This document shows positions 22,629-52,900 of a stretch of 64,000 nt of DNA, piece after piece. The stretch is taken from assembly GCA_000002435.2 (NCBI GenBank), contig CM018789.1. The stretch is one strand, 5' to 3'. The notes under the pieces were generated by a model. It saw nothing but the letters and a program-made list of their open reading frames with translations. It ran no database searches and was not told the origin of the DNA. The translations under genes were made by a program, and so were the position numbers. The stretch comes from Giardia intestinalis. Lineage: Eukaryota. The stretch's first letter is position 1. Each line of letters opens with the position of its first letter.

Positions 22629-22822
22629 TTTGCTGGATGTTATTATTTTAAAAGCATCATGATTGAATGCATATTGAACCGCGCTGCGAGCCACGCTGTA
22701 AGCAAGTCAGAGTTTGCTCACCAGCATGGCAGTGAGGGAGCTGGCACACAGGTGCCATTGTCACAGCACATGCACATCCTAACAGATTTCATTGTTGTTT
22801 TTTGGGCAAAAAAATCAAAAAA

Positions 22823-23990
22823 GATGGGCTCCATGTGTTCAACTGCGGGGTCTGACCCGCGCTTCAACGAGCTTAACATAAGGTTAGTTGGCTCCTTCGA
22901 AGATTCGTGGCCCTTGTCTCCGGAGCTGTTGGAGAAATACAGATGCCTTATTTCAGAGGGTAGGGAAATAGATGACTTTTTCCAGACAGCCGATTCTGGG
23001 CTTAAACTCTACCAAATAGCTACTCGGGAGAAGACAGAACAGGCAATGAATGCTTGCTTGGAGCAGATCGTCAAGGTGTCCGAGACAATTGCCCGCTATT
23101 TAGTGTTTCAGGAGTCGTTTGTACCGGCTTTAATTTATCTATTAGACTGTATTAACAAGAGTGCTGATTCTCCGTTTATCACAGATGCCGACGACCTTTG
23201 GATGAATATTACGAAGATGAATAATCCAAAGATATCTTCCTTACTAATCTTATTGACACAGCTGTTCGACATCTGCTCTTCCATAGACAAGAAGTTCCTC
23301 AACAAAAACTTCGACAGCTCAGTTGGAATCTTCCGGCGTCTGGCCCATGACAGGCATCTCGACATCAATCACTCCCTCAGTAGGCTTGCCACGTCTCAGA
23401 CGGTCTCCATGTCGCTGTCAGGCCCCGGCCCCACCCTTCGGCAGTTCATTCAGTCATGCGCATGCATGCCCACGCTCGAGCCAAGACACGTGCAGTGTCA
23501 GCGATCTTGTACTTGTGGCTGTGGCGTCATTCAGTGTGCGTGTGGGTGCCCTGAGTGCTGCTCTTGTCATGACTATACGCCCCCGCCTTTTCTTTTCGAG
23601 ATGACAGACGCCAAAGCGCCCATGGATGTCATGGAAGGAAGGATTGGTTTTCTGCTGACGGTCTTGAATGGGATTCTGGGAACTCTAGACAAAAACCCAT
23701 CTCTTCGCACGGGTCTAGATAGCGTTTACTACAGGCGGGTTCTCCTCTGCGGAACTACGTGTTTGAATAATCTCTACACAGATTATCTTCAGCGCTTCAA
23801 GAACCTTGACGCGTGCTCGGCCACGGGGATATTCCATGGTAGCTGCCCGCTTAGTGTTCTGCGCGTATGCAGCGCGATTACGTCGGGGGAGGACGAGAGC
23901 CTGTTTTTGCGCCACAATCTTGCGGACAACGCGCGAAAACCTAATGATAAGCCCGCCGATAGTAACGCTATCCTTACCTTTGCGTCTTAG
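22823..23990 (+). CDS. Hypothetical protein with an N-terminal MGxxxS (myristoylation-type) motif and a central Cys-dense cluster
   Basis: The ORF-track ATG at 22599 overlaps the divergent B55 gene. The later in-frame ATG at 22823 is preceded by gggcaaaaaaatcaaaaaagATG and gives MGSMCST. CQRSCTCGCGVIQCACGCPECCSC is a Cys-rich knot. Confidence 0.5.
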
Positions 23991-24145
23991 ACAGCGTAAT
24001 TATGGTAGTTTGTAAATTATGTTATCTGTCCGCAGTCCATGCATCCACTCACTAGCTTCCCACAAGAACGCGGTGGTGCTACTGCGCATCATTGTAGAAG
24101 AAGAGACAGAAGAGAAGGTAAATCAAAAATATCTCAAAGCTCTAG

Positions 24146-25693
24146 ATGGAGCTTTATGTCGTGTACTCGACAAAACTGGTGGAGGCCAGGGCATGGCTTC
24201 CTTTCTCAACGGTCTCCATGGAGTGCTCGTCCGTTCTGTCTGTGGCAGAGGCGGATTTAGAAAGGTTTTGCATCGATATGGTGCAATGGCTCAAAGATGT
24301 GCCAGAGAATGCTTTATTGTCATGTTTATCGCAACAGTCCCAAGAAGACGCCAGTAAGCTAGGGAATACCGTTAACATTTACCGAATAACCTGTCATGTT
24401 AGCTTTAGAGACGCCGATATGTCCCAGAACAAGTATTTGGCGCGTCTGAAAGCACTGTTGCATCGCTGTGCAACAGGGTGTACTATAGTATTTCAGGTGG
24501 AGACATATCGGCCAGTATACCGTCAAACTATCGTGGATTTTTGTATAACGTCCGCATTTTTGGCACAGCGCCTGGATTTCTACCAGTATTTAGAGTTTCT
24601 TGAGGTTAGCCAGTCGAAAGCTCAAGTTTCAGCAGCCAATCCCGCGTCTCCAGATGAGAGTGCTAAAGAATTCATTAAAAACAGCTTCCACAGACTAGTT
24701 GCACCAGTAATGAGCTTTAGAACCATTGACACATTGAGGAGTAGCTACTCAGGTGCACAAACAGAGGAGTCCAGAGAAAAGTTCAGGCTTGATCTTTCGC
24801 GCAGACTGTTTAATGAAACGGTATTTGAAGAGGTTGAGGAGGCACTTTCCAAGGAGCTTACAATTCCCTTGTCCAAACTGTCGGTAATTGTCCTCAATGC
24901 TTGTGAGAAGGCTCCTTTTCACAACGATTATTGTAATCTGCTTTTTTCTCTCTATGGCCTGTCAAACATAAAGTCTAGTCAGTACATACGTGGCCGTCAT
25001 ACGTCACTAACCTTAGAGAACGAGCTATATAGGTGCACGTTTCTTTACATGTGCATGTATGAATACATCTGGCTGGTGCTTCAGAACTCTCTGCTGGACT
25101 CTGTTGAAGAGCCTCAGGAACAAGGGAAAACAACGAAGATGATAAGAGGGAGCTTTACAGAGTCCTTCCACCAGGTGATCACCAGTGTCTATCGTCGGAA
25201 GCTGCAAGGATCACAGGACATAAATTCAGCATACATGGCATATGGTTCTAGCAAGCCTCTTGTGGTGCCAACAGGTCGCCTGGCCATACCATTTTCGCCA
25301 TTTCAGCATACACAAGGGAAAGTGAAGGATCTGACGTCCATGCTGAAGCGACTTGGGTTCACACTCATAACTGCTACCCCTGTCACTCGGCAATCTCCCG
25401 TATCCACACTATCAAAAGAGACATCCATCCCAACGCGGCCTTCGTCCAGTCCTCAGATCGCTCCCAGCAAAACTCCTGACCCAGATTTACCTGTCTGTGG
25501 CACACCCCAAAACATTCAAGCTCAATACAAGCTTGTTGAATGCAATAGCTTTGTTCTCAAGAACGGCCACCCACTTGACCAATTTGAGCAAATAGAGACG
25601 GGTAGGTTTAAAGCAGAAAGCAACAGACGATCAATGGATCAATTTACCATATTATCAATCAAGCAGCGCAACACTATGTTCTGGAACGCTTGA
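24146..25693 (+). CDS. Hypothetical protein of 515 aa; see the finding on a possible 5-prime extension from 24019
   Basis: ATG at 24146. The ORF is uninterrupted and protein-like. The last 80 aa are S/T/P-rich. TGA at 25691-25693 abuts the stop of the convergent WIPI gene. Confidence 0.55.
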   Translation: MELYVVYSTKLVEARAWLPFSTVSMECSSVLSVAEADLERFCIDMVQWLKDVPENALLSCLSQQSQEDASKLGNTVNIYRITCHVSFRDADMSQNKYLARLKALLHRCATGCTIVFQVETYRPVYRQTIVDFCITSAFLAQRLDFYQYLEFLEVSQSKAQVSAANPASPDESAKEFIKNSFHRLVAPVMSFRTIDTLRSSYSGAQTEESREKFRLDLSRRLFNETVFEEVEEALSKELTIPLSKLSVIVLNACEKAPFHNDYCNLLFSLYGLSNIKSSQYIRGRHTSLTLENELYRCTFLYMCMYEYIWLVLQNSLLDSVEEPQEQGKTTKMIRGSFTESFHQVITSVYRRKLQGSQDINSAYMAYGSSKPLVVPTGRLAIPFSPFQHTQGKVKDLTSMLKRLGFTLITATPVTRQSPVSTLSKETSIPTRPSSSPQIAPSKTPDPDLPVCGTPQNIQAQYKLVECNSFVLKNGHPLDQFEQIETGRFKAESNRRSMDQFTILSIKQRNTMFWNA

Positions 25694-26722
25694 TCAATCC
25701 GTCAGCATATTCAGGAAGTTCTCCTTCTCAATGGCATTATTTGCAATTCTAAGTTTATAGTAGGACCCATCTCCGCAGACCACAATCATGCAGTCGTTGG
25801 TGATGAACCTGCAGAGAGACACAGGGTCATCCAGGGCTATCTTCGCAAACGACCACTCGGAGTCGAAGTACTTGTTAATAGTGGACATAAACTGCATCTT
25901 GTGCTTCTTGTTGTCGGCCATCTGGGGCTGCATTCCATAGGCCATCTGGGTAGGCTGCATCACGTAAAACGTATGAAGCGTCTTGCGAGACGACGTTACA
26001 GCGATGATGGACGAGTCCGGCGAAAAGCCGATCGACTGGATGTCTGCCTTTTCACTCCCTCGTCGGACCTCCTTGATCTTTTGGAAGGAGTCTGTGGTCC
26101 AAACGCGAATGAGAGTTCCCTTGGAGCTAGCCGTGGCAATGAAGCGTCCATCGAGAGAGAAGTTGAGGCAACGAATATCATTCTCGTGGCAGATGTTGAC
26201 CAGATACGTAGCGCTCATGTTGGCTGAGTAGCGCTTGATAAGCACCTCGCCCATGCGAAGCCCAAGGGTGGCGATCATGACGTCTGTGTCCCCAACCACG
26301 GAAAAGATCCCGTGAGGATTGGGATAAGTGTCAAATGAATCCAGAAGCCTCATGTCTGATAAGTTATAAACGAATACCTTGTTCTCGAAGACGATGAAGA
26401 TCTTCTCTCTGGTCATGCAGGCGTTGAGCACGGGGGTTCTAAAGTGGACCTCTCCGATTGTCCTTCCACTCTGGTCGTCATAGACGGTGACCGCGTCCTT
26501 CGGGTAGCGCGAGTTCATGCCTGTTCCGACGATAGCAAGGATGGACGAACGAAAGAGCATGGCAACAACAGAGCACCCGTCAGGGAAGTCACGGCCGTAG
26601 AGAGGGCGGAACGGAACGGTGTTAAACACACGGAAGCCCCTATTTGTCCCTACAGTGATGCAGGATCCGTCCTGATTGAAAGATAAATAGAGTGCGCTGT
26701 TCTTGCCTGACGTAACCTGCAT
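25694..26722 (-). CDS. WD-repeat phosphoinositide-interacting protein (WIPI/Atg18 PROPPIN family)
   Basis: ATG at 26720-26722. The N-terminal LSFNQDGSCITVGT blade is present. TLIRVWTTDSFQKIKEVRRGSEKADIQSIGFSPDSSIIAVTSSRKTLHTFYV matches the PROPPIN phosphoinositide-binding region (IRVf.....l.EfRRG.....I.SlaFS.D...La.sS...T.HiF), with VRRG in place of FRRG. Confidence 0.8.
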   Translation of the reverse strand: MQVTSGKNSALYLSFNQDGSCITVGTNRGFRVFNTVPFRPLYGRDFPDGCSVVAMLFRSSILAIVGTGMNSRYPKDAVTVYDDQSGRTIGEVHFRTPVLNACMTREKIFIVFENKVFVYNLSDMRLLDSFDTYPNPHGIFSVVGDTDVMIATLGLRMGEVLIKRYSANMSATYLVNICHENDIRCLNFSLDGRFIATASSKGTLIRVWTTDSFQKIKEVRRGSEKADIQSIGFSPDSSIIAVTSSRKTLHTFYVMQPTQMAYGMQPQMADNKKHKMQFMSTINKYFDSEWSFAKIALDDPVSLCRFITNDCMIVVCGDGSYYKLRIANNAIEKENFLNMLTD

Positions 26723-29828: not shown

Positions 29829-32800
29829 ATGACAAGAGTTATTGAGCTGGGGGAGTATTCAGACCATGCATACGCTGCCATCTTTCCTGGACTGGGCCTC
29901 CTTCTCACTGATCCTGAAGGTGTTATCACTCTCTATAGAGACGATGATAAAGGTCCAGGGTTCATTGTTCACAAGGCGAATTCACCAATCACAGCTTTGG
30001 CATGCACCCATAATATTATACTAATCTCATGCGGAGAAACTCTTAGGGTGAGCAGGTATCGTCCTGACCTAGGAAAATTTGATGAGCTCAGTGATACTAC
30101 AAATGAGTGTACTTTGCCGCATGCTGTATCGGTTCTTTACATTCTAGATAGCCACGGCTTCCTTGCTGGAACAGATGTCGGCGAGTGTTATCTTTTCCCG
30201 GTCAATCTTGATGACGAAGTAGAGATTGCTACCCCTTTACCAGAGCCGGTACTTCTTGGCAGACTAAATGACGCGATTACCTCACTTACTAGCTCGGAGA
30301 CAATGATACTTATAACCTCTCAAAGTGGCCAGGTGCTCCTCCTAGACATTTCTTCATACTTTCAGCCAGAAAAGAAGCCAGCAGAAACAGCAACTGTTTT
30401 CTCGACTAGACTCCTTTGCGCAGAGCTGCTACAGCCGGGATCCATATCTTACGTTACTCGCCTGGGTTCTGCACTTTGTGGGAGCGACTTTCTCCTTCCG
30501 GGGGTTGAATTGGCACTTCGATCTGTGTCACGGCCACAAGCGCCCATCATGTCATCGGCTCTTCCAGATAACGACACTGTTATCAACTTGCAATATGTCG
30601 TTTACGAAGGAGAAGCGACACCAGCACTCTTCTCATGTGTGTCAATGTCCCAGGATCAAGTATGTTCGGTGCACCTTGTGCGCTTTACTGGAAAGAAGCA
30701 AACGCCCTTTCTTATTTGTTGCATGCAAAAGTTTCCCAATAAGGCATTCATTGTTTCCCATTATATCCAAACTCGAGATGGGCATATCTGTAGATTAATT
30801 GTACTCACTGCCTCTCCTAACGAGGGGAGGGCTCTACACATATATGACAACTTCTATACGCTGACACATGCAGATAAACAGGCGCTGAAGGGATCCGCAG
30901 CTACAATCAACGACCAAATCCAAGAATTAACAGCACAACTCCTCACAGAAGCTATGACAGAACCTTTCACAAAGAAACAATTAGCCCATCAGGTTAAGAC
31001 TTCTAAACCTAGTGAGCTCAACGAAGAACAGTCTGCTGAAAGCAGTAGCGAGTCTGAGAGTGATCAAGATACTGTCATTCCACTTGGAAAAGATACAGTA
31101 GAGCACGAAACAAAGATCTCATCAGGATCCATCGTGGATAAGATTCCAGAAGGATATAGTCTTCTGGTTGAACGGTTTGCTGATCAAGTCCTTCAAAAGG
31201 TTATTCTACACACGGGCTCCTCTCACACGACCTCTCCTGCCCTACTAGTCAACTTCTTTGTTAAGCTAGGTAGCACCACTCTCCGCTCTTGGGACTTTAC
31301 CTCACTATTAACGAGAATTGAGGCACTCGGTCGCTCGTCCCGCACGTTCCTTTGTTATACTTCCAAAGGATCGGTGCAGATGTCTGCCTTTGATAACGGC
31401 ACATCCTTTATCATCTATTGTAAGCCTCATACCTTAGGGGCACGGGAGCAAACATACACCCTACCACAGCCCGCTATTCATGCGTCTATCTCGGATTACG
31501 GAACTGCTATCCTCAGAGAAACATCTCTATCTGTCTATCCTTATCAGGACTCTCCAACGGCTCCTGAGTTCAAGCGGGAGTGGAAGGTTGTTTTCCCTCC
31601 AACACTTATACCTGTTGCTTGTGCTTTTGGTGACGCCCGCTTTGCGGCTGTCTCCTTCACAAATAGAACGTTGATAGCATACTGTGGTGGCCTTGTTTGC
31701 TATTCTAACGTGTATGCCTGCTCCATTACCTTACTGCTCATGGAAGGGTCAATTCTTTTTGTATTGTCAGAAAACACCTTCTACCTTATAGATTTAGAAG
31801 CCAGAAAGACAATTGTAACAGGTACATCACCGGTCCCTCCTACCCATCTAATTTGGGGCTCCATAGATGAGTTCTGTGTGCTTTTGTACAGCCAAACAGG
31901 CACACTATTTGCGTTAAACATACAATCTATCTTCAGTTCTGTTACTTACACGTGGGTTCCCATTCTATCGGTAGTCGAACAAGAACGGAAACGGATATCT
32001 ACCATCCACAATAAGATACATCGGTTCTACACATCATCTGACGTTCCATCGATATCCCTCAACGATATGTCAGCACTGAGGCCTCTGTTTTACTTTCCTG
32101 TGGATGTTAGTCTTGCTGATCTGTCCATGTATGCTATTTCAGCCTATGCACTGGATATCAAAGGCAGCTCTGATAAGATTATGACAGTAAGGCATATTTC
32201 CACCTCGCTACGAGGGGGAAAACTATCAAAAACCAAAAGTTCCACATTTCTCGAAGAACTGCGGAATGCATTCAACTGCGATCTTCAAAGGCTGAATGAA
32301 TATCCGCTTCAGGCCCGTGTAAGCCTCCCAGCCATGGGCGAATTTGACGTCACACCCTGTGCATTATCTCCCGTTATTAATGCTAATGATGACGACATTG
32401 ATCGTGCTGAGCGTGTGCTAGTCTTGCGAGAGATTGCACTAAATGCTCTCCTAGCGTGTTCCACCGATGAAGGAGCGCTGCGAACAGCAGAGAAACAATA
32501 TGATAAAGAGGCAATCCAGTATATCAACCTCTGTCTGCGAGCAGGCTTGATTCCAAGGGCGTGTGCTGCTCTGCAATTGCTTAGAACCAGAGGGGCAATA
32601 GAAATGGGCTTACAGCTATTCAGCATCGTTGGAGAAACACAATTTGTTGATGCTATCTCGATGAAGCTGGACGACGTGTTTGGACAGGCTCAGGGTAACG
32701 AGGAAACGCAACTTGTACGAAACACAGAGATCCTGCCATCTGGGGTTAGTCCATTTTCAACCAGCTCCCTATGGGCCATAAAAAGTGATTGCTTGAGCGC

Positions 32801-33119
32801 AGGGACTCTATTTGCCCAGGTAAAGAGAGATACCCTGGAGAAGCAGTACAAGCTCATGATTGCTGAGATGAATGAGCAGCTCGCTATTCTAAAGACGCGC
32901 ACCAGAACAGTTGAGGTAGATAAACTTACAGGGAATGGGCTAACCGTTCTGGATGAACATCCCGATAAGCATGCTATACTAGCAGACGTTAAAGAATCTC
33001 AAGAAGCAACCTTACAGGTAAAGGAGTCGTCATCCTATGCACCAAAGTCACGATCCATTATGGCAACAACCACTTCCCCAACAAAAAGCCTTGCATCTAT
33101 CTTTCAAAAAAATAAATAA
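29829..33119 (+). CDS. Hypothetical protein of 1096 aa; the N-terminal half may be a beta-propeller-like fold and the C-terminal half is alpha-helical
   Basis: ATG at 29829 follows a 71-bp divergent spacer. The ORF is uninterrupted. Its TAA stop (33117-33119) overlaps the ATG of the next gene by 1 nt. Confidence 0.55.
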   Translation: MTRVIELGEYSDHAYAAIFPGLGLLLTDPEGVITLYRDDDKGPGFIVHKANSPITALACTHNIILISCGETLRVSRYRPDLGKFDELSDTTNECTLPHAVSVLYILDSHGFLAGTDVGECYLFPVNLDDEVEIATPLPEPVLLGRLNDAITSLTSSETMILITSQSGQVLLLDISSYFQPEKKPAETATVFSTRLLCAELLQPGSISYVTRLGSALCGSDFLLPGVELALRSVSRPQAPIMSSALPDNDTVINLQYVVYEGEATPALFSCVSMSQDQVCSVHLVRFTGKKQTPFLICCMQKFPNKAFIVSHYIQTRDGHICRLIVLTASPNEGRALHIYDNFYTLTHADKQALKGSAATINDQIQELTAQLLTEAMTEPFTKKQLAHQVKTSKPSELNEEQSAESSSESESDQDTVIPLGKDTVEHETKISSGSIVDKIPEGYSLLVERFADQVLQKVILHTGSSHTTSPALLVNFFVKLGSTTLRSWDFTSLLTRIEALGRSSRTFLCYTSKGSVQMSAFDNGTSFIIYCKPHTLGAREQTYTLPQPAIHASISDYGTAILRETSLSVYPYQDSPTAPEFKREWKVVFPPTLIPVACAFGDARFAAVSFTNRTLIAYCGGLVCYSNVYACSITLLLMEGSILFVLSENTFYLIDLEARKTIVTGTSPVPPTHLIWGSIDEFCVLLYSQTGTLFALNIQSIFSSVTYTWVPILSVVEQERKRISTIHNKIHRFYTSSDVPSISLNDMSALRPLFYFPVDVSLADLSMYAISAYALDIKGSSDKIMTVRHISTSLRGGKLSKTKSSTFLEELRNAFNCDLQRLNEYPLQARVSLPAMGEFDVTPCALSPVINANDDDIDRAERVLVLREIALNALLACSTDEGALRTAEKQYDKEAIQYINLCLRAGLIPRACAALQLLRTRGAIEMGLQLFSIVGETQFVDAISMKLDDVFGQAQGNEETQLVRNTEILPSGVSPFSTSSLWAIKSDCLSAGTLFAQVKRDTLEKQYKLMIAEMNEQLAILKTRTRTVEVDKLTGNGLTVLDEHPDKHAILADVKESQEATLQVKESSSYAPKSRSIMATTTSPTKSLASIFQKNK

Positions 33120-35341
33120 TGGAGCTGCGACTGGGCGTGGAGCATGAGCATCTTGTAGACGGTCAGGACGATTTAGAGAACTTGGTGATAGATGACGTCC
33201 TCAGCTCAGCTTCATCTGGCTTACAGTCCGCTCGTTCTGAACGTCCATACTCTTTTATCAGAAACAATCCTGGGGACTCTCAGGAAAAGCATGGTATAGG
33301 TGTCTTCTTAACTTCAAGTGACGAAGTAACCAGAACAATGGACGATGTCTTACAAAAGGACAATCGGCTATCTGCATCTAGATACACCCAAAAGACTCTA
33401 GTCTCTCCTGAATTAGTGACAATACCTAGCACTTGTGGAGATGCATATCATCTCTCTGACGACGAGCAGAAGAGTTTCGATGGCATTGGGAGTAAGATTG
33501 GGCTGGTTGAATCAAAGACTATAGATTCCCCACCGATAGAGAACCAGATGCTATCGGAGTCTGCATTGGATCCCAAACAGCTAGATTATTGCCCCGAACA
33601 GTCTCGCAAAAATATAGCAAATCTTCAAGAAAGACTGGCAGACTTTAAAGAGAAGCACCCGGAAGCTGCGGAGTTGGCACAGGAGGCTCGGGATAGCGAG
33701 CGTGTCCTTGAGCTTCTGACCAATGCTACCACTGACGAGCCATCGTTTCTAGCCGAGCTTTCTGCGCTACAAGAAGTGCAAGAACTGTGGCGCACAACGC
33801 GGCCAGAACTATATCGGCTCGTTTTGAAGTACGGTGCTGTGCGAGAACAGATAAGACTCCTTATGAAGGCCGATAGAAACAAGGACTACCAGGACACCCT
33901 CATGAGTGATTTACTTGATGCTAAGAAGACTCTTGCCGACCTTAAAGCCACGCATCCCGATGTTTATGAATTAATTGCTGACACAGCCCTAGTGCAATCG
34001 CAAATTGCATCTATTAGTAGAGCAATGTCTCATAAGGGGCACTTGAGCGATAGACTGACGTGTCTCAGAGCCAGCCTCCATAAGCTGCAAGCAGATAATC
34101 AGGAGATTTTTGCCCAGCAGGCAGAGCTTCGACAATTAGAGGACGATATTAGAGACCTGCAAGAATTCTCAGACAATCGTGCTAAGTTCAATGCTTATAA
34201 ATCTAGCGTTCTGGCTGCATATGAAGCTCTTCAGTTGGAGCACCCTGACCTTGTGGCGTCATTCTTAGACCTAAAGCAACTAAAGCATGAACTAGATACT
34301 ATTAAGAGAGTCAAAGATGGCCTTATTAATATTGAGGGTGAGGTCCACGATGCACGGCAGCAGCTGAAGCAATTTAGGGAATCCAATTTGGAATTAGTTT
34401 CCCTTCTCGAAGAAAAGAAGCGCATAGAGGAAGACATAACAGAGATCCGAAATGGCATACAGAATATAACGCAGATTGCAGATGTGCTGCGCTCTTTGCA
34501 GGATATCTATGAGAACATCAAGGCAGAAAACCCAGAGCTTGTTGAGCTGCTAGACAGACGAAGAGCACTGAAGGATAAAGTTGTGCAGCTTCGAACCTCT
34601 ATCAAGAACCAGAAGTACCTAGAGGACGAGGTCGCTGACATGCAGCATCTTTTAGACGAGCTAAGTCGCAAGCATCCTGATGTTCTACTATTACTCGATA
34701 GAAAGAAAGAGCTGCAGGCAGCTTTAGAGTCTTTGAAATTATATGCTACCAACGTCTCTGTTTTGGAGCGAGATATTGAGACGAAAACACGCACATATGT
34801 TGAGTTATGCAGCATCTTTCCAGATATCAAAGAAAGGATACTGAAACGCAAGTACATAGAAGAAGACATTGCTCTTTTTAAGAGCTTTTCTAAAGACCCT
34901 GCACGCCTGGCCAGAGACACCCTCGCCCTCAGTAATGCATACGAGCAGTGCAGAGCCATGTCTCCTGTCATAACATCCATGTTAGACACCCGGACCTCTC
35001 TCGTTGACTTGGTATCTGAAAGCGCTCAATGCAATGAATTGGGGCTGCGCAACTTGCGAGAAGCGCACTCTGATGAGTTGTACGATTCTATCTCAGCACC
35101 CCCTCCAGAACCGCTGCCTTCAGAACGGGGTAGGAGGGCGCCGGAGTCCAGACAGCAGCAGCAGCAGCCCAGGCCTCCTGAGTATGGACAGGAGTTTACA
35201 GAAAGCGGCATAGCGGACCGCATTTTAAACGTCGATTTGCCCAACATGATGTGTAACTTCTTCGGGATATCAACGCCACAAACAAAGAAGGGGCAAAAAT
35301 TGAAGACAGTTAGCTCTCCATTAAGAAGAACTATTTCTTAG
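33119..35341 (+). CDS. Coiled-coil protein with at least five tandem repeats of roughly 75-80 aa, each opening with a (K/E)HP(D/E)-hydrophobic motif
   Basis: ATG at 33119 is preceded by aaaaaaataaataATG. The repeats begin KHPEAAELAQE, THPDVYELIAD, EHPDLVASFLD, ENPELVELLDR and KHPDVLLLLDR, each followed by heptad-rich sequence. There is a Q-rich patch (QQQQQ) and the C-terminal tail is basic. Confidence 0.6.
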   Translation: MELRLGVEHEHLVDGQDDLENLVIDDVLSSASSGLQSARSERPYSFIRNNPGDSQEKHGIGVFLTSSDEVTRTMDDVLQKDNRLSASRYTQKTLVSPELVTIPSTCGDAYHLSDDEQKSFDGIGSKIGLVESKTIDSPPIENQMLSESALDPKQLDYCPEQSRKNIANLQERLADFKEKHPEAAELAQEARDSERVLELLTNATTDEPSFLAELSALQEVQELWRTTRPELYRLVLKYGAVREQIRLLMKADRNKDYQDTLMSDLLDAKKTLADLKATHPDVYELIADTALVQSQIASISRAMSHKGHLSDRLTCLRASLHKLQADNQEIFAQQAELRQLEDDIRDLQEFSDNRAKFNAYKSSVLAAYEALQLEHPDLVASFLDLKQLKHELDTIKRVKDGLINIEGEVHDARQQLKQFRESNLELVSLLEEKKRIEEDITEIRNGIQNITQIADVLRSLQDIYENIKAENPELVELLDRRRALKDKVVQLRTSIKNQKYLEDEVADMQHLLDELSRKHPDVLLLLDRKKELQAALESLKLYATNVSVLERDIETKTRTYVELCSIFPDIKERILKRKYIEEDIALFKSFSKDPARLARDTLALSNAYEQCRAMSPVITSMLDTRTSLVDLVSESAQCNELGLRNLREAHSDELYDSISAPPPEPLPSERGRRAPESRQQQQQPRPPEYGQEFTESGIADRILNVDLPNMMCNFFGISTPQTKKGQKLKTVSSPLRRTIS

Positions 35342-40989: not shown

Positions 40990-43900
40990 TCATGCTTCAG
41001 TGACAACCTCCTTAGCGTTCTCCCTATGACTGGCACAATTGGCGCAGATTTGACAAGGCGCTATACTGCTTATGTCTTGGTATGGGAAAAAGTATGCGTC
41101 TGTTGACATACACAAGGGGCAAAAATGACCGGTGCAGGCGTGACAGTAATGCTCTGGCCGTTTTCCGCCACACCTTGCACAGCGGTTACTAGGAAGTGCC
41201 GGTGCGCAGTCAATGTACCGAGGGAGTCGCATGATCATGGTCGATAAAGAAGCTACAACCCGGTCATTGATTGATAAACTCATATGCGAGCAATCCGTTG
41301 CAATCTTCCAGATGGGAGACCTACTACTGGTTACGATCTCTGCACACAGTTTGGGGACTAGAACGGTCACAGTGCGGTCTTTGAAGTACTCTACATGCTT
41401 TATTGCAAGGGGATGGGATGGTCTATGTGCCGGAGCTGTGCAAAGAAGATTTATGCGTGTGGGCTCAGAATCTGTCGTAACCTTGGTCTTGATCTTTATT
41501 CTCACCGTCTCTGTGAGAAGTGACGGTAGGAGTACGTAAACTCTGAGAACACCCTTCTTATCTCCCGTTAAGAGCAGGTTATCTGCAATGGCGAGAAAGG
41601 CTGTGGTCTCATAGGAGGGTAGAAGAGCATAGAGAAGTGCAAGGCTTGTGCTCCAACAAGAGAGGATCCCTTCTTGAAGCACCCAAATTCTGCCGGCAAT
41701 ATCAGCTATCTGAGTCTGGACGACAGACGATGGATGCTCCACCGGGCGCATTGGCTCAATGGCGTGAAGCTCCACAATGGCAGCGCCGGTGATGAGATTG
41801 TACAGAATATGCCTCTGACCTACAGAGACTAGAATAAGTCTATGGGGATGTGAAACTGTTACGGCCGAAAATGGCGGAGTGGCCAGAAGCCGAACATGCC
41901 CGGTGACACTCAGCAGGCCAGCTTTCAGAGCATCAGGAGCAAATAGGACTAAATGAGTAGTTGCATCGGTGAGTGTAATGATGATACAGCTGTACTGAAC
42001 AAAGCACTGTCTGATATAGATGTTCATGTGGCCTCTTCCATACAGAAGGAAAGGAAGATTTAGTGTGTGACAAGTATGGTGGGCCTGGTTAATTACGGCT
42101 ATGGTGCGCATGTCTCTCATCAAGATAAGTAGAGAGTCAGGTGCTAAGGAGTAAATGTTTGCCAACATGATCATGTTTTGTAATTGGGTGTGTGAAACGC
42201 GTGGTTGCTTTGTCAGTAGCAAATTGTAAAACCATGGAATAGCTTGCTGTGGGCTAAATATATCTGCAGTTGCCGTGGAAATATGTTCCCCTTCGGAAGT
42301 GCGGACCAGTGACACTTCAGTCGGGTAGAGCACCTTCAGGAGGTCGTCAATGTGGAGAAGGTAGTCATATATGCGAATTTTCGTTTCGTTCTTTCCCCTA
42401 GATCCTAATACAGACTGGTAGATGCACTGTAGCACAGGTCGCTCTTCCACAGACATGCAGATAACGTCTCTAGAGCAAACACCAAAGTTCTTAAGTTGAG
42501 AGTATGTGCTTATCCTCGTCGAGAAGTTAGAAATACAATCCAGCGCAACAGAATCAGGATATGTTAGCCAGTAGTATATATTGAAGTGAGCTAAGCTGTT
42601 CTGCTTGTCACCAAACAGAAGACGGCACCATTGATAAAGGCTTGGAAAGGTGGTATACTGAGCCAACCGTTCTCTATTTATTAACGTGTAAAGAACCGTG
42701 TGCAGATAGGTGTCTAAAATGTCCTTGCAAGCAGTGCAGCCAGTCGCGTTCATAGAGTCACAGACCAAGTCATGGACTGCCTCGCCTGTGCTTCGTATAC
42801 CAAAGTCATGAGCAGACTCATTAAGGAACATATTTGGCGCATAGAATAGCTCTGGTATGAGTTCTCGGCACTCGCTGAGATTTGTATCCTTCACGGAGCT
42901 CCACAAATCCGACACATTGCTGAAAATCCTATCTGGGTTATCATATTTTCCATCATGTAGAAGGAGAGCTGCTGCCGAGAAGGGCTGAGATCTGAGGAGC
43001 ATTCCAGCAACAAACCCAGAGGTAGAGTAATGGCTCCCAGCAAGGAACGGAGCCGTTGTGAGGCTGTTATATCTATCCATATACTTTGCACGCTTGGACT
43101 CCGTCTGCTCCATGACTGTTTTGGCCAAGTTGCGGTCATCTGCAAGCCATGGAAATACAGGATACATAGAAGTGTCGCTGGAGCAGCGTCCAGCTACCAT
43201 ATTCAGCGCAATAACAGCCTCAATATGGCTTAGCTTTCCTGAGAACAAAAGTATTGGAATACTGAGGGTAGAGGGAAGCTTAGACCAGGGCATGGACTCC
43301 GAAATGCGGTTGATGCTGGGACCTAAACCAAGGGAAGGCCTTTCTGCAGCGTGATAAGAGGATAAGAGAGAGGTATAGAGGGCCGTGCTATCAATGATTT
43401 CGCCGAAGTGTTGCTGGGCCTTTGTGATGAGGATTAGAGCTTCCTCGAGCAGAGTGGCAAGTTGCTTGTTTAGTGCTTGCAAGACAGTCTTGAAAATATC
43501 ACTATATTGCGCTGTGATAGCCGATATCTGCTGAGGAAATGGCAGCTCATAAGGGTGCTCGTATAAACTTGCTTCAGATGGAGTGTCAGCATAGTTGATC
43601 TGTGGGATTTGAGAGCAGCATGAGTCCAAATGCATGCGCCATTTAGAGATATATTTCTTCAGCGATGCAACATTCGGTAACACAATTTCAAACCGTGCAG
43701 TGCCAAGATCACAGTCCCAGGATCCTTGTAGAGAGGTCTTCATCAAAGAGAAGATGAGAGCTATTGCAGACAGAAGGGAGTTGTTCTGTAGCATTAGTTG
43801 GCAGCTCGTGAATCTGTCAGATACCGGTGTTTTTGTTAGAACTGAGCGTGAACACTCCTGTTGAACGCGCAACATAAAGGCATGATCGTTGACGTAATGA

Positions 43901-46900
43901 TTTAGCCGCAATCGCCTAGATGAAATACTATCAAGTATCTCGTAAGTGTAAACCTCGCCTTGCTGAAGGAGAACCTCTATTTGCGTGCACCTGTGCGCCG
44001 ACTCCTTCCACAGAACGCTAGATATGTCTGACAATTTAATTGTTGTCATAAAAGGCAACAACTGAGCGGACCCTGTGCTGAGTTTTGCAGTTTGTTCTAG
44101 TAGAAGCCGCACATCTGTAAGGCACCGTTTTTCAAGGGCAGATTGTTCTGTGTGAGAGTCCGAGAGGTTCATTACTGGCGCTATAGAGTACTCGGAAACT
44201 GGCCTTCCTGGGGGATAGTTGCATCGCTTGACCAGAGAGGTCAAAAAGTGCTTGAGGTCTTTGAGAATCTCTCTTTGGGGCCCATGCTGCTCAGAAACGA
44301 GTTCTAGCTTTTGCTCAGGAAGTCTGGTCGATATAAGCAGTGTTTGTAGCATCTCTTGCATAGACGAAACGATCTTTTTAACAATCGAAGGCTGATGCAC
44401 TGCAGTTGGCAGCTCCTCCTCTTTCTCAGCAGAGATCTCTTGCGGTGAAATACTAAACGCATGCTCCCTCAACCCATAAATAATCTCCTCAGAGACCAAC
44501 CTCCACCCTGGAATGAAGTATATTGCCAAATCGGTAAGGATAAGAATGCCCTCATTTGGTGAAACCAGCTCTGTCTCATAACTGGCATATGCAATGAACT
44601 GCACTAATTCTGTGGCTGGTAAGATGTCTGCAAGACTGATAACGGAGTTGGCCTGCAATATATCATGAACTTTCCGCTCCAACTGTATCAGTAGAGACTC
44701 AAGCACTTGGGATGCTTTGTACTCTGGCGTGAATGCGCATGTTGCTCCAATGAGATTCTTTGTCCTCAATGAAAACTCATGAGATGTTCGATGGTAGCCT
44801 GCTACGCAAGCGAGAGGACCGCCCAAGTGGTAATAGCGACTTACGGCAGCGATAGTGGACAAAAGATAGTATACACTCCCTGAGCGAATGGGACTTAGGT
44901 GAATGTATGGAGCAGGAGTAACCACTCGACGAATGGCTTTAACCGGCGCGTTGGCAAAAGAGCTTGAAGACTTGGCTACTAGGTGTATGCTGCCGCTCAG
45001 CCCCATCGCCGTCAATCTAAAGCAATGTCGTCCAAATAGATATGACTCTACAATAACAAGTGTTTTGAACCTAGACGACTGCAGGGTACTGGGATTCGCT
45101 CTATTAGGATCCGTGTATTGCCTCACAAAGTCTAGAAGTGACGTAGTCGTGCCTTGGACCTTGACTTTTCCTTCCACAGATAGGTCTTCCCCATATATGG
45201 TCTGAATAAGATCAATAATGCACGTTATATTTCCAAGCTTGAAAGTGCTGGCAACAAAATAGAAGAATATGACAGACGAAAAAGGTATCATAGTTCTTAC
45301 TACTTTAGAGATTGCATGGGCCAATTCTACATTTGATGTATGAAGTATTGAGAGCAGAATAGCATTAATGACACCCTGTACAATCTTGAACTTTGTGAAA
45401 TTAAATCCCTGAAGCAGCTCACTGAATTTTATAGGTGTACGGCCTGGTTTCCCAGCAACATCAGAGGATACAGCTATTGCATCATCATCGCTTTCCGACA
45501 CAACAGATTTAGACGTGACGAACTCTAACATCTTGTTGTAGTGCTTGTATAGTTGCAGCTTCAACTTTGGACTCTCTGCTTTACCCAAGTAAATGTTACA
45601 GAGCTTTGTCACTGTAAGATCATTCTGCAGGATTTGCTTGATAAGTGTAAATGGATATCCATGTGTTGCAACGTTTCCAAGAGAATTATGAAACGAAAGA
45701 GGAAGAATCTCCAATGCGAGAATTTGCATAATTAATTCCTCATATTTAGAGCATAGGTCATTTGCAGATGGCTCCAGTGTTCGATGTTCCATAGCAAGAG
45801 AATAGTACTCAAAGACACAGGTGACGTATTCAATGAATAGGTCAGGAGAATTTAAGGTCTTTACCTGTGAGGTGAGAGTGCGTACAAACAAAAGATACAT
45901 GGCTTGCATGTATTGTAACGTGTCTTGTAGAACGGTAAGTGAATACTCTCCCAAGTCCAGATATCTCGCCAAGAGACGTAGCACAGAGGAAAAGACCAAG
46001 TCCACAAAGGGACCTATACTCAGGAGGTCTGTCTGAGTGTTTTCCACAAGCTCTTTGTGGAGCTTCACAATCCGGCGCTCCTTGGGCACAGAGTTCTTCG
46101 AAGAAACAATAACTGTCTGCGTGAGAGGAGAGAGGTGTAGTGGCGTATGGTGTGTGTATGAAGCCCCGGCTAACGACTCACAGATAAACTTCAAAAGGTC
46201 AAGGCACTTTTGCAGTGATGATACCTCTGTTGTAGCTACATATCCTGAGAGGGAGACAGCAAGACTCTCCGAAAGCAGCAAAGCTAGCAGTGATGAGAGG
46301 GATGCACAGGCCTTGTCGATCGCACAGAGCCGAAGGTTCTTAAACAAAAACCGGGTAATCATCTCTTGTGCTACAAGAGCCTTGCTGCTAAGAGGACTTG
46401 TATCTGCGAGCTCCACAGAATCTCCGAGTGCAGAACTGGTCGCTACTTCGACAATGTCATCAGAAGCTGTGTGTACTGATGCAGCTGCGTAAACCAAAGA
46501 CACCAGTAGCAGGAGATGGCTTGAGTATCCATAGATGGCTTCTAGAGGATCACTGCTGGATGCACACTTTTGAATATGCTCCAGCTCAATTGGGAAAGCC
46601 TTCTGAAGCTCACGAGGCGCAATCACTCGGTAAAACACCTGCAGCGTGCAGTCAAAATTCTGAACATTATGATAAATGATAAACTCATTCGGATTCGCGG
46701 GCTCCAATAAGCTTCTTGGTCCTGACAATGTGCGTCTATCCTCTGGCCCTACTATATCACCTGTTCCAAGCGGTGCTGTAAAAAAGAATTGAGCAGCATT
46801 AAGAGTCATGCTTAAATCTGAAAGATAGTGTTTGAATAGCTCTCCTGGCGTATTGTTAACCATAACTGCTTCAAACATTGATAGAAGATACCTTAGTGTA

Positions 46901-49900
46901 TGATTGAAGGTCTGAGGTGTTTTTAGTTGCAAGCAGTAAAATATGCGCAGCCCGCTGATGAAGGGCATGAAATACTCCATGTTGCAAATGCTTCCGTTGA
47001 GTGCATATGTGGAGGTGGACAATCGGAACCACGTCAATGGATCAAGGTGCTCAGTAACCGCGGCCGTCGATACTGAAAGGAATGACGCTAGAAGTGAGAA
47101 TGCAGTCGCTAAAAATGCGTCGATAAGTGGACTCAATACCTGCGTTTGCCGAAGAGCGTCAAAGCACAGCTCAATAACAGTTCTGTATGCACCGCAGATA
47201 AGGTATAGTTGTGGAAGAGACTTGTGTTCGTCTGTGTAACGGATTACATAGCATGCAGAGTAGAGTTGCTGTATGATGGCCTTAAGGGATAGCGAAGTCA
47301 ACTGCTCGATTACCAAGCAGTGATCGCTTCCGTCCGGGACTTCAGAAGACTCATTAACATCCTGGGCTATATGTGGATATAAAGCGAAAGAAGCTTGAAG
47401 AGAGGTGTAAGAGATCTGCAACTGATCAAAAATAACATCGGAGTTAAGAACCGTAAGCATGTCAACATGCACACTTGACGGCGTCCCCGAGGAAGAGTTA
47501 CTTCGTATATTGGCCAGGCGATTGATTATTAGCGTAACATATCCAGTCATGCCGTGAAGTATGGCGTGTTTGGCAAGAGACACATATGGAGAGGTGCTGC
47601 TGTGCTGTTGTATGCAGTTTGCATGGTCACTAATAGTACCCGCCACAGAAAGCGAGTGCGTGTGAAGGGATGCCGTTATAAAAACCGTAGCACGAGATAG
47701 TGTCTTTATGAAAGCAAGCCCTACCGCAGAGTGAGCTACATCCTCTGCAGCAATCAGGGTATACATAATTCCAAAGGACTCAGTGGCTATGTATGTAAAC
47801 TTTTGTGATATCTCCAAAAGAGACTGAAGAGGATTGGCAGAGGTCACGAGAATAGAACCAGCATAGATGAGAAATGCATCCATCATGCCGTGTATATACT
47901 GAAGCCAAAAGTCAGGAGTGAGTAGCTGTGCAAATAACTTGATATTTTTAGACGATTGCAAAAGGAGGCCTCTCAGCAGGTAAAGCATAAGCGGAACCGA
48001 GTCACTGGACAGTGCAATAGTGGCCGGCCATAAACACATAAATGAACTAACAGAATCTGCCACAAGTAGCTCCTCAACTAGGTAGTCAGCAAGCTCAGTT
48101 GGTATGCTAGATATTCCTGACTCCGTAATGGTTTCCAAAGTGAAGGAGATGGCATTCAAAAGAGCACCACAACGCTGCGAGTAAGCAAAAAGAGCGAAAA
48201 GAGCGTCACTCGCAGCAGAGCTTAGGCTTCCCTGAGATGCTATAATTAACGCTCTACACGCGGGTAAGAGTAGATTGCAATCGATGTTAACTGGTAAACT
48301 CCTTGAGTAGGCTAATGGGAAAAGAAACCTTTCCAGTGGAGGATTGGCAGAGACCACTGCACCAGATAGGGGCTTGGCTGTTACGGACAGAAATAGCTTG
48401 GTATTATCATCAGTTTGTGAGTGTATAAAGCACGAACTAGTTTGCGTGTGTTGTAACAGATTGACGCTGGAGTCAAAGACGAGCAACCCCTTACCAATGT
48501 ACCACTTATCTATTCTTTCTAATTCACCAATCCGGGGGACTTTCACGATAAAACGCTTGAGAAGAGTAATGCTGGATAAAATTATAGACACTTTTGACCC
48601 CATATCAAGATACTTACGCAGTAATAGATTGGGATCTCCTCCCGTGATGCGTGCCAGTATGCCCATATATGTATGTAGTTCGCCTAACATGAGCACAAGC
48701 GACTGCCGCGACATTCCGAAGAGAGCAGACGTAGTGAACAGACTTGGAATAAAATTCTGATCAAAAAGGGAAAGCTGCTCGTGAAACGAGATAAAGTGGT
48801 GCACCGTGCCCAAGACTCCTGTTCGCTTAGCCTCGGAGAAGAAATCTCCTGACGAGCCTTGCTGATGAAATAGCTTGAAAAATGCACGTTGATACCTGGT
48901 GAGAAACGCAGAAACACACTCTCCGCTCCATGGCACAGGGTCTGGGGTGGTCTTCTCTGAGATTTGAGAGGAGATGAATGAGGATAACTCTAAAGAAGAA
49001 ACGATTGGTACCTTGGTGAGAGTCTGGATCAAAAGCATAAGAAGGGAGATTCCACTGTAGAAAGGAACAGATGTAACAGGTTCCAGATAACCCAGGCGGA
49101 ATAGTAGATCATCCAAAAGAAGCGTACCATCAACCGATGTTATTGCCTTTAGAAACTCGTTGTAGATAATTAGTGACGTAAGGGGTACAACTGACGCTAA
49201 ATGGTTGACAACAGGTTGCATGTTTTCATTCAGCTCTACGGAATTAGGTTCTGCAGTCTTTAAAAAGGAAAATACAAGAGAGTCAGGCTGAAGAGACGTA
49301 GTATTGAACATCAGTGATTGCTGAGAAGAATGCGTTCGGATATCATAAAGTGTCGAAAGGGCAGAACTTTTATCACCTTGAAGTAGACGGCGAGACGGGG
49401 GTTCAGATGGCTGCGCACAATATGGGCAAGATACCGTGTACTCTTTGGGATGAGCCACTAGCTCACCAGTCCTGTTAACAGAAGCTTGTAGATCTGCGCA
49501 TAATAGGTCGAAAAGTAGGTAGTCTGAGGTGGAGACCATATTACACTGAGGGCAAAAGAAGCCTCTACGTTGTAACGAGTGACAGCCCTCAGTAAAATTT
49601 TTGCAGTCAGAATAGATGTGCAGATACAAAGATTCAAAATCGGTGGCAAACGCATCCAGATACCTGCTGGATAAGTGCTCAACTGAGACCTCGTGCTGTT
49701 CTAAATATTGGGGAAACGCGCACAAGCAATCCTCAACAATGAGGGGCTCGGTTTTGCCTGGTGTGCTACTAATTATCTTGATGGCTGAAAGAGGATGTGT
49801 TTGACCTAATAGAGAGGTATGTGGGGTATCCAGTGGATCGTAAAAGCTGAGTCCGCATGGCATACGCGACTGGGATCTAAGATCATGTGCTAGCCCGAGT

Positions 49901-52900
49901 ATGCTACCGAAGCTGGCGGGATCGTTGAATAGCTTCGAAATAGGCATACTCTTGTCAGTCAGCAGAGATACTTGAAATGGAGTAAGAATAAATGGTGAGA
50001 CAAGAACCTGATCATACAGTAGTGATCCCTCTGTTGTTATCTCAATCTTCAAGGGGAGGCAGAGCCTAGGAAGCTGCTCTAAGCGAAGGGACGCAGAAGA
50101 TCCATTAACCGTGACGGTTAAACCACAGATGGGTGTAAAAGAAGTGCCGAGGATAAATGAACTATGCTTCGAAACGCTTGACATTCCAAACCCAGAAACC
50201 GCTACACCAATAGTAAGCTCTCCATCTTCCACTGCGCTGGAGGGAAAGGCGTAATCGAGGGAATAAGTCCAAGCAACTGATGTAGCAACCAATCTTCGTA
50301 AGGACAAGTCCAGCGACAAGGTAAGAATAATCTCCGCGGAGTCAATTGAGAATATAGTTAAAACTAGGGAGCTGCTGTAACTATGGGTGTGAGAGCCATG
50401 TAGTATAACATGCAAGGCCTGCAATTTCTTGCTGCCATCAGTACTAGCATTAAGCTTATCACCCAATGTGTACATAGAGGAGTTCTTGGTCCTTCTATAG
50501 CCTAGCATGCTCTCGTGATATAATGCAAAGGATTGTGTGGTCGCCTTAAAGTACTGATCTGGCAAGCAAGAAGCTTCGGTTCGATGCCTTGAAAAGTGGT
50601 ACAAAAGTGATAATATCGATTGTGTGCAACTGTCATGTGGCGCTTTCAAAAGTACTTTTTCTAACCAGTGAATTGTCAATCCATTGGAATGCAGCAAGAG
50701 GACAGGTAAAAATCTTGTAATGCTTTTATTCTCATTCCCATCTAAAGTGGTAAAAAGTAAAGTCAAGAAGTTAGTGTTCCCCACAACAACTGAGCCAAGA
50801 CGCGCTCGATGACGAACCGCCAGCTCAATCGGTACACCTGTCTCCATAAGCTCCCTGTGCTTCTCAAAGACAGTTTTATCAAACGGAGTGTCCCTGGTTT
50901 CCAAGCAGCTAAGGTAGAATAACAAAACTGAAGGGTCTTCCAAGTAGTGGGCACGGATTGGTATCACCAGTTGCTCGCCATATGGGCATGCTAGTATAAC
51001 AAGGGAGTAGTAACGTTCTGGAATCTGCTGCGCATACCCCTTGAGCTTTCCTGACAGGCCAGTTATAAGGTTGCCCAGGCCAGAATCTGTATGAGGTGTG
51101 CCAGGTACACACTCTGCTCGAGAAAGCTTCATCTTAGAACAGAGCACATCGCATATAACAGGAAGATAATTATTTTCAGCAGATGCTAAGAAAACAGTCG
51201 CAAGAGTAAGATTGGCCGCAATGGTACTTTCCCATCGCTCCTCTAATTTGAACTCCACGCACACCAGAGAAAGGAGTTTTTCTTGCAATAAGGGAGTTGT
51301 GGAATAGTAAAAAAGATATGCCAACAGAATAACCTCAAAAAGCTCAAGCGGCTTAGCAATATTACAACCCAACCCAGCCCAAAGTGAACCATCGCCTTGT
51401 GAGGATATCCATCCTTGGGAAATGCAGGCGCAGAGACAGCACATGTTGTAGATAATAGGAAATTCATTTAATTCCTGAATCGGTGCGTAGCCTAACAGAA
51501 CGTCTTTGGAAATAGTTAGTCCGGGTTTTGTAAGGAATTCTGTGCGAGCATACTGTATCAATAAATCCAATCTGATACAACTGGCGGAGCGACCCCTGAA
51601 AAATAATAGCACAGAGGAAGCATAAGCATGGAAGTTACATGTCAATAGCGTATGCAATGCCTCAAGCAGGCCTGACGCCTGGAGTAGCGCTTCAGATGTG
51701 TCATAGTTTTCTTGCAAACGTAAGAGTATATTCAACAAATCCATGTTGGACCAGCGAGGTGTGTCGGAAGCACACCCTGATAAGCTACCCTTGGAAAGTA
51801 GGCCAGCAAAGAAAGCATAGACATCAAAGAATCTATTCAAAGAGTTATCCGTTGATTTGAGCACTCTTGTAGAGTGTTGTACCAAAGAATCCAAAAGGGC
51901 ATAGAACGGCTCAGATGCAGACAGCGAGTCTTGGTCCAATGTTATTAAATATGGGATGATCCATTCTAGTAAATTCGTAATAGTCGAGGAGCCGCTGTCT
52001 AGAAATGGATAAGGCTGTCTGGTGTGCAAATTAATGAGTCTGGTGAGAACTTGCACAAACAGTGTACATGTTGAATTACGAAGCAGAACGGAGTGCTGAA
52101 TGTCATATTTGTCACACGAGGTATTGCCCTCATTCGATTGTGGATAGATATCTAAATCTATTAGGGGAAGAGTAAGCAGATCTGCCACAAAGTTAGTAAT
52201 CCAGTTGGTACCCCGAACACTAATGCACGATGCATTTAGTAGAGCTGCTGTCAAGGAATCACTAGGAGGTTCCTGAAACGCTTTCAGGATAGATTGCTGT
52301 TCCTCTATGGAGATAGGTTGGAAAATAGTAACCAGTAAGAGCAAGCGAAATAATGCTGGGAACATTTGACGATCATATCTAAACGACTTGATCAGGAGTT
52401 CCTTAAGAAGTTGCAACTGCTCTGAATCAAGCACGAAGATGCCTTGTGTGTAATAACAACACAAGAGCGTATTCTCGATGATAACCGAAATATATTTATC
52501 ATAGTGGTCTCCTGTATCGAGCAACTTTCGACCAGCCTCGCGAAGTAGAGTCTTTGATAGTTGAATTATGCTCTCGATATCTTTTGATGACATCCTGCTG
52601 TCTATAATGTGGTAGAGAAGCAGGGTGGATGAGTCCTTTGGCCGTGCAAGAGAGCACCTACTACATCCGTTGCTATTAGTGTCTATGGCTGGCTGAGTTT
52701 CTGTGTCATCCAGGGCGGAGAACACATCTTTAGGTGAGAAGAGTAAGAGTGGAGAGAGACCATCAGGGGCGGACATTTGAAGTACACATGAATCTTCACA
52801 TCCAACAAGGCTAGCTAGATCTTTAATATAAATAAGTTCGAGAGCAGAGAGGGAGTCCATCCAGGAAATAATGGATGGCATTGTCGCCGTCGTATACTGA

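Follow-up and report, generated by a model that had tools for sequence, protein, structure and literature searches.

The question raised by this locus is where the protein encoded by GL50803_0010821 begins in Giardia intestinalis WB, the source strain of the sequence. The long ORF of this gene opens with MELYVV, has 515 codons and ends at 25693. A sequence-only reading of the 64,000-nt stretch of DNA analysed here (the window) had noticed an ATG at 24019 opening a protein-like frame upstream of it, and had pointed out that removal of a 28-nt GT...AG segment would fuse the two. It was left undecided there whether the upstream ORF arose by chance, belongs to a gene split by a very short spliceosomal intron, or was separated from the main ORF by an indel or frameshift at the 5′ end. 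We consider it very probable that 23991-24145 is ordinary intergenic DNA separating two same-strand genes, with no exon, intron or frameshift, and that the gene starts at 24146. The features concerned are as follows.

22824..23990, plus strand: upstream gene GL50803_32399, 388 aa in the current annotation, identified by exact-sequence look-up; stop codon TAG at 23988-23990.
24000..24021, plus strand: conserved block TTATGGTAGTTTGTAAATTATG in the 3′ flank of GL50803_32399; TGTAAA(T) at 24011-24017 is a probable poly(A) signal.
24019..24117, plus strand: 33-codon upstream reading MLSVRSPCIHSLASHKNAVVLLRIIVEEETEEK; fast-evolving, variable-length, non-coding spacer.
24118..24145, plus strand: 28-nt GT...AG segment GTAAATCAAAAATATCTCAAAGCTCTAG; probable AT-rich core promoter/initiator and short 5′ UTR of GL50803_0010821.
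24146..25693, plus strand: GL50803_0010821, hypothetical protein of 515 aa with its start ATG at 24146; residue-for-residue identical to XP_037901651.1 / KAE8301818.1.

The upstream gene also has an older model, which starts at 22659 and gives a protein of 443 aa. On the other side of the locus, the downstream convergent neighbour of GL50803_0010821 is a WD40/PROPPIN protein (XP_001709096.1).

The upstream reading and its frame

Much of what had been described upstream of the gene is present in the sequence, with corrections. The ATG at 24019 does follow 28 nt of A/T-rich DNA (23991-24018, 71% A+T) after the TAG at 23988-23990, but its reading as a typical pre-start spacer is not supported; it holds a conserved block whose place is set by the upstream stop codon and not by any downstream reading frame. 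The 33-codon reading from 24019 is also there and begins MLSVRSPCIHSL... (MLSVRSPCIHSLASHK), so that the hypothetical fused junction would read ...EEETEEK-MELYVV. It has no stop at that point, however, and continues into the main ORF in a different frame, ending at 24357 after 112 codons. Likewise, the 28-nt GT...AG segment exists but occupies 24118-24145 rather than 24119-24146, leaving the ATG at 24146 outside it.

The proposed arithmetic holds. The two ATGs are 127 nt apart (24146-24019), which is 3n+1, and deleting the 28 nt (also 3n+1) brings the 24019 reading into the frame of the ATG at 24146, with the in-frame stop TAG at 24143-24145 lying inside the deleted segment. Removal of an alternative 52-nt GT...AG segment (24094-24145) fuses the frames equally well. 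The observation is thus partly confirmed, being real as arithmetic, yet it is a coincidence.

The start codon across Giardia lineages

A protein search with GL50803_0010821 returned four more 90%-identity clusters, at 84, 75, 65 and 62% identity, and the syntenic loci were compared. Besides WB, these were:

L008 and L009: P15, assemblage E.
L001-L003: assemblage B type.
L004: a more distant Giardia lineage.
L005 and L006: more distant Giardia lineages (the runs of L004-L006 are ERR33333xx).

A transcript-length P15-type contig (L007, SRR445167) was also seen, with its 5′ end 48 nt before the ATG, and is mentioned as a lead only. The P15 RNA-seq run is given as SRR455167 in PMC5224939, which may be SRR445167 with transposed digits.

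The sequence ATGGAGCT[T/C]TATGT, encoding MELYV, is common to all lineages compared (six distinct loci), and in every lineage except the B type an in-frame stop (TAG or TGA) stands immediately 5′ of this ATG. When the lineages are aligned, the variable columns in codons 1-30 of the main ORF number 7, 3 and 23 at the first, second and third codon positions, while 24 of the 30 columns from -30 to -1 before the MELYV ATG are variable. Since the third-position signature begins at the ATG at 24146 and the MELYV ATG is invariant, this codon is the start codon. Annotations in other strains use the same methionine: DHA2_152322 (DH, 515 aa), GLP15_2531 (P15, 515 aa) and GL50581_3936 (GS, 512 aa). Orthologues starting at the MELYVV-equivalent methionine had been named beforehand as evidence against a fusion, and this is what we found in 5/5 other lineages. 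The 90% protein cluster that contains GL50803_0010821 has 14 members, and as each is at most 515 aa long the fused form of 548 aa is absent from it. The true start of GL50803_0010821 is the annotated ATG at 24146.

Other routes to the N-terminus gave little. A Pfam scan of GL50803_0010821 and GL50803_32399 with E up to 0.1 returned zero families, making a domain-based argument on the N-terminus impossible, and a full-text literature search by gene IDs returned zero papers. The current model of the gene (515 aa) is upheld and the split-gene reading is a coincidence, a result of little importance beyond housekeeping. It has some use for this protein family in metagenomes, where automatic gene callers have produced wrong N-termini, namely a 533-aa extension in assemblage B and 510-aa proteins with GTG starts.

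The DNA between the two genes evolves quite differently from the coding sequence on either side of it, as seen from WB and P15 (mismatches are given by codon position):

Upstream CDS, last 300 nt: 85.3% identity, 0 gap columns, mismatches 1/0/43.
Main CDS, first 300 nt: 86.0% identity, 0 gap columns, mismatches 8/4/30.
Body of the upstream reading, 24022-24117: 58.3% identity, 18 gap columns, mismatches 7/11/7.

In the last 300 nt of GL50803_32399, 43 of the 44 mismatches thus fall at third codon positions. Given its 58% identity, its 18 gap columns and its lack of codon-position bias, the supposed exon evolves like non-coding spacer, and the WB/P15 indels in the spacer have lengths that are not multiples of three.

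The upstream reading fares no better as a peptide. In P15 the upstream ATG is directly followed by TAA, giving an ORF of one codon (two independent assemblies), and the upstream ORFs of L004, L005 and L006 have 29, 25 and 25 codons and are unrelated in sequence. The upstream and main ATGs lie 127, 121, 63, 155, 174 and 170 nt apart, and these spacings fall into all three frames. Regarding the splice dinucleotides, P15 (GATAAAT), B and L004 lack the 5′ GT of the 28-nt segment, and B (GAA) and L004 (TGA) also lack its 3′ AG. We looked for any fusable GT...AG in P15, B and L004 and found none, while L005 and L006 have an unrelated one, with the fusion made from a different ATG.

Only in assemblage B does the conserved upstream ATG share the frame of the main ORF with no stop between them, the spacer there being 62 nt shorter and carrying a TAG-to-GAA change. 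These two differences leave the frame open and account for the 533-aa calls. The resulting 21-aa extension is not consistently alignable with the 33 aa of WB and differs from it in length. The middle stretch of the spacer varies in length and evolves fast, and its freedom from stops in the frame of the conserved ATG is a chance feature of WB alone.

Splicing, sequence error and chance

The frequency with which such a layout arises by chance was estimated by randomising 24022-24145 with dinucleotide content kept, holding the ATG at 24019 and the main ORF fixed (n=2000). An in-frame, stop-free fusion from the ATG at 24019 through a GT...AG of 20-60 nt was possible in 474/2000 shuffles (24%), and fusion from any upstream ATG in 1212/2000. 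Among the 32 gene-like ORFs of the window, five have such a configuration within 155 nt upstream. A pattern found in 24% of shuffles and at 5/32 genes is no more than expected by chance, and GT...AG frame arithmetic taken by itself has a false-positive rate of about 15-25% here.

The default minimum intron length of HISAT2 is 20. This program was used in a WB intron survey of 70 RNA-seq libraries, which recovered 8/8 validated cis-introns, including one of 29 nt, together with 34 candidates (PMC10711314). Neither a GL50803_0010821 junction nor any 28-nt junction is among its 42 candidates, with the survey threshold being at least 5 spliced reads in all source studies, so that rare or condition-specific junctions could escape it. 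We also examined ten Logan contigs from ten sequencing runs. All encode exactly GL50803_0010821 and are base-identical to the window over 23891-24205, and ten identical independent assemblies mean that there is no indel and that the sequence is correct. Ansell et al. 2015 list three of the runs (SRR2642193, SRR2642197 and SRR2642199) as RNA-seq libraries (PMC5224939 Table 1). The contigs from these three retain the 28 nt and each spans several genes; unspliced RNA or DNA dominates in them, which leaves room for rare splicing.

Read as splicing, the locus would have a 28-nt non-canonical spliceosomal intron specific to WB or assemblage A, joining a 33-codon exon at 24019-24117 to the MELYVV ORF in a protein of 548 aa. 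The GT...AG termini, the 3n+1 length and the open upstream frame are all seen in WB, and the known introns of Giardia are of comparable size (29-42 nt) and located near gene 5′ ends (PMC10711314 Table 1). The segment resembles the Giardia 'Type A' cis-introns (ferredoxin, 35 nt; Rpn10, 29 nt; dynein light chain, 32 nt; PMC10711314, PMC4085374) in being short, A/T-rich, near the 5′ end of an ORF and bounded by GT and AG. It differs from them in having neither GTATGT nor CTRAC...CAG, in its dinucleotides and 'exon' being unconserved between assemblages, and in being missing from the RNA-seq intron catalogue of the same strain. Its 5′ end reads GTAAAT in place of the Giardia motif GTATGT (rarely CTATGT), and its 3′ end, TCTCAAAGCTCTAG, is without the fused branch/acceptor motif [A/C]CTRAC...CAG. 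The sequence-only reading had already remarked on this mismatch to the diplomonad consensus and had ranked the intron as less likely; both judgements are borne out, the second also by the unconserved splice dinucleotides and upstream peptide. The pattern GTATGT N8-38 CTRACMMMCAG, searched throughout the window, gave zero matches. Splicing here would restore no conserved frame or protein, as the peptide, the frame and the fusability all vary across lineages, P15 having only ATG TAA where the peptide should be. Also against an intron are the non-coding evolution of 24022-24117, the appearance of the pattern in about a quarter of shuffles, and the lack of a 548-aa member in a protein cluster that includes RNA-seq-derived assemblies. 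The promoter, moreover, would have to lie upstream of 24019, within the 3′ end of the neighbouring gene. Taken together, we regard such an intron as extremely unlikely. A narrower version, in which assemblage A alone splices a minor share of its read-through or upstream-initiated transcripts at GTAAAT...CTCTAG, strikes us as less credible still. If true, it would give a lineage-specific, N-terminally extended isoform of GL50803_0010821 and a newborn intron without the canonical Giardia motifs.

The spacer could also be read as the remains of a longer gene, with an indel, frameshift or assembly error having removed an ancestral longer N-terminus and the real protein starting at 24019. Assemblage B speaks for this to the extent that the frame of its upstream ATG runs into the main ORF without a stop, and automatic callers arrive at 533 aa. 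Yet its 21-aa extension arises from the shorter spacer and does not have the length of the WB reading, and the GS annotation is 512 aa. With the ten separate-run assemblies matching the window base for base over 23891-24205, with P15, L004, L005 and L006 all having a stop right before the MELYV ATG and short, unrelated ORFs from the upstream ATG, and with spacer indels that ignore the reading frame, we give an indel or frameshift practically no chance. Alternatively, the ORF at 24019 might be a regulatory uORF or a small overlapping protein, translated from a longer leader or from read-through of the upstream gene. Its ATG is invariant across lineages and in WB it is 112 codons long. Its conservation, though, comes with that of an 11-nt block whose position follows the upstream stop, and the ATG does not head a conserved ORF. 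The ORFs that follow it have 1, 25, 25, 29 and 112 codons, or are fused in frame in B, and their sequences are unrelated. Additionally, Giardia leaders are 1-14 nt long and its ribosomes work without scanning (PMC3610916), leaving little room for uORF control. A functional ORF at 24019 is very unlikely, if a shade less so than an intron.

Probable signals at the two ends of the spacer

The block at 24000-24021 has the form TTATGRTWGNNTGTAAATTATG across lineages, with its final 11 bases unvarying. These 11 nt, TGTAAATTATG, are invariant in all lineages with data, and their last three bases are the ATG at 24019-24021. In every lineage with a placed upstream stop, TGTAAAT begins 21-23 nt past it, whereas the distance to the downstream ATG ranges from 71 to 182 nt. 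Such fixed spacing to the upstream stop and variable spacing to the downstream ATG argues that the block belongs to the upstream gene. Just after stops in the window, TGTAAA occurs at 2.29/kb (4/32 genes) vs 0.05/kb in sense CDS, with identical values for AGTAAA, all from small counts.

In Giardia, cleavage usually follows the poly(A) signal, AGURAA, at a distance of 13-15 nt (PMC9014877). The hexamer at 24011-24016, UGUAAA, has a mismatch at position 1 to AGURAA (AGUAAA/AGUGAA), and because of it we call UGUAAA a variant rather than a canonical member. Like AGURAA (PMC9014877; AGTPuAAPy in earlier work), the block has a G-U-A-A-A core about 20 nt after the stop in an A/U-rich setting, and it is likewise conserved from one assemblage to another, with depletion in sense CDS and enrichment after stops. 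Unlike AGURAA, it starts with U, and the conserved stretch of 11-22 nt is longer than a hexamer. As UGUAAA differs from AGURAA, the role proposed for it rests on its conservation, its position and a small enrichment count (4 genes in the window). On these grounds the block is probably the poly(A) signal of GL50803_32399, and would direct cleavage and polyadenylation of that mRNA at about 24024-24030, the ATG at 24019 merely being part of the block. That UGUAAA may behave locally as a variant poly(A) signal is a modest new point, and otherwise the locus offers nothing new.

The canonical binding site of PUF-family proteins is UGUANAUA. The bases UGUAAAUU at 24011-24018 agree with it at 7/8 positions and might be the site of such a 3′-UTR regulator, instead of or besides a poly(A) signal. 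The 11 invariant bases are more than a hexamer signal needs, and the first base is U and not the A of AGURAA. Set against this, TGTAAA is enriched after stops in the window exactly like AGTAAA, and the block lies 21-23 nt after the stop, as expected of a short Giardia 3′ UTR. We find a PUF site unlikely, a minor alternative, and prefer a poly(A) signal. On both views the block is part of the upstream gene's 3′ end, and the conclusion on the start codon stays as it is. An Rfam scan of 23700-24400 with E up to 1 gave zero matches, and the conserved blocks are therefore not explained by known ncRNA. We also considered a small peptide from the ATG at 24002 (M-V/I-V/A-C-K-L-C) and rejected it; it has 6 codons before a stop in L005/L006 and diverges just past the DNA block.

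At the other end of the spacer, the 28-nt segment carries A-runs in WB at 24120-24122, 24125-24129 and 24136-24138 (-26, -21 and -10 from the ATG), and a run of A4-A6 at -20 to -22 from the ATG is found at 6/6 loci. In the window, 20 of the 32 ORFs have an A run of at least 4 within -30 to -1, vs 8.7% of random CDS 30-mers. Giardia promoters are about 50 bp long and contain an AT-rich element in which transcription begins, at A-triplets lying 1-27 nt before the ATG (PMC1872034). Zero ATGs occur between 24041 and 24146, so for a transcript starting there the first AUG is the one at 24146, and 5′ UTRs of 1-14 nt read by ribosomes that do not scan are the Giardia norm (PMC3610916). As in the AT-rich initiators of the GDH, histone, tubulin and ran promoters (PMC1872034), the A-triplets lie within ~27 nt of the ATG, and the WB A-runs place the element within the 50-bp minimal-promoter range. 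The candidate initiator described here keeps a fixed distance to the ATG across lineages. From these features, 24118-24145 is probably the initiator/core promoter and 5′ UTR of GL50803_0010821. The A/T-rich element at 24120-24138, some 20 nt before the ATG, would act as the initiator/core promoter, and the mRNA would have a very short leader with its first AUG at 24146. Giardia genes can be packed so closely that a poly(A) block and the initiator of the following gene, lying within ~150 nt of each other, imitate an exon-intron layout.

N-terminus of GL50803_0010821 and its orthologues

In the assemblage B type loci (L001 2993-3066; L002 and L003 likewise), the spacer before MELYV, the first residues of GL50803_0010821, is just 93 nt, and no stop separates MELYV from the conserved upstream ATG, which shares its reading frame. 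Automatic gene callers therefore give a product of 533 aa with a 21-aa N-terminal extension; in the GS genome annotation the length is 512 aa. Many database copies of the GL50803_0010821 protein are 510 aa long and start 'MYS...' (including P0002 and P0008), and another with this start, P0004, has 509 aa. The 'MYS...' copies start at codon 6, a GTG at 24161, set by prokaryote-type gene callers, and we rejected this codon as the biological start, considering it a database artefact from such callers.

The 28-nt GT...AG segment of WB (24118-24145), whose removal would fuse a chance upstream ORF to MELYV, has a parallel in the more distant Giardia lineages L005 and L006 (2927-3000 in each), which carry their own 29-nt segment, GTAAAG...TTCTAG, upstream of MELYV. 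Excising it would join an unrelated 15-codon peptide, read from a different ATG (-74), to MELYV. This is the same coincidence as in WB, arisen independently.

A hint on the 5′ end comes from L007 (1-1638), a P15-type (assemblage E) contig from run SRR445167, which starts 48 nt upstream of the ATG and ends 42 nt past the stop, a span close to transcript length. A P15 RNA-seq run is given as SRR455167 in PMC5224939. If SRR445167 is RNA-seq, the 5′ end of the mRNA would lie at most 48 nt before the ATG, far downstream of the upstream ATG.

Convergent 3′ ends and the poly(A) hexamer

The stops of GL50803_0010821 and its convergent neighbour adjoin as TGA|TCA at 25691-25696, with 0 nt between them:

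24146-25693, plus strand, GL50803_0010821
25694-26722, minus strand, WD40/PROPPIN gene

The abutting stops are also found in P15 and B, and in L004 and L005 the orthologous stops are 4 nt apart. Because the stops abut, the 3′ UTR of each gene must enter the CDS of the other, in line with PMC3610916, which reports 81% transcript overlap for tail-to-tail gene pairs.

Window-wide, enrichment of TGTAAA just 3′ of stop codons equals that of the published AGTAAA signal, each following the stop in 4 of 32 genes (2.29/kb vs 0.05/kb in sense CDS; small counts). Examples are:

8753, minus strand, TGTAAA after stop
24011, plus strand, TGTAAA after stop
40940, minus strand, TGTAAA after stop

GGTAAA and CGTAAA showed no such enrichment in the window. 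These small counts suggest that the Giardia poly(A) hexamer tolerates U at its first position.

Upstream gene and other ORFs

Two deposited models of the upstream gene GL50803_32399 differ in their start (22659-22826):

XP_001709099.1, ATG 22659, 443 aa
XP_001709099.2, ATG 22824, 388 aa, begins MGSMCS

Its counterpart in the B-type loci has 398 aa. The UniRef name of the protein is 'CYRIA/CYRIB Rac1 binding domain-containing', and a Pfam scan gave no match at E up to 0.1.

Elsewhere in the window, the ATG of ORF 33119-35341 overlaps the stop of ORF 29829-33119 as TAATG. The A-rich CAAAAAAATAAATA (within 33105-33130), a candidate that looks like the initiator of ORF 33119-35341, sits inside the CDS of ORF 29829-33119. 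The window's largest ORF by a wide margin, at 4207 codons, is a single reading frame at 40990-53613 (minus strand).
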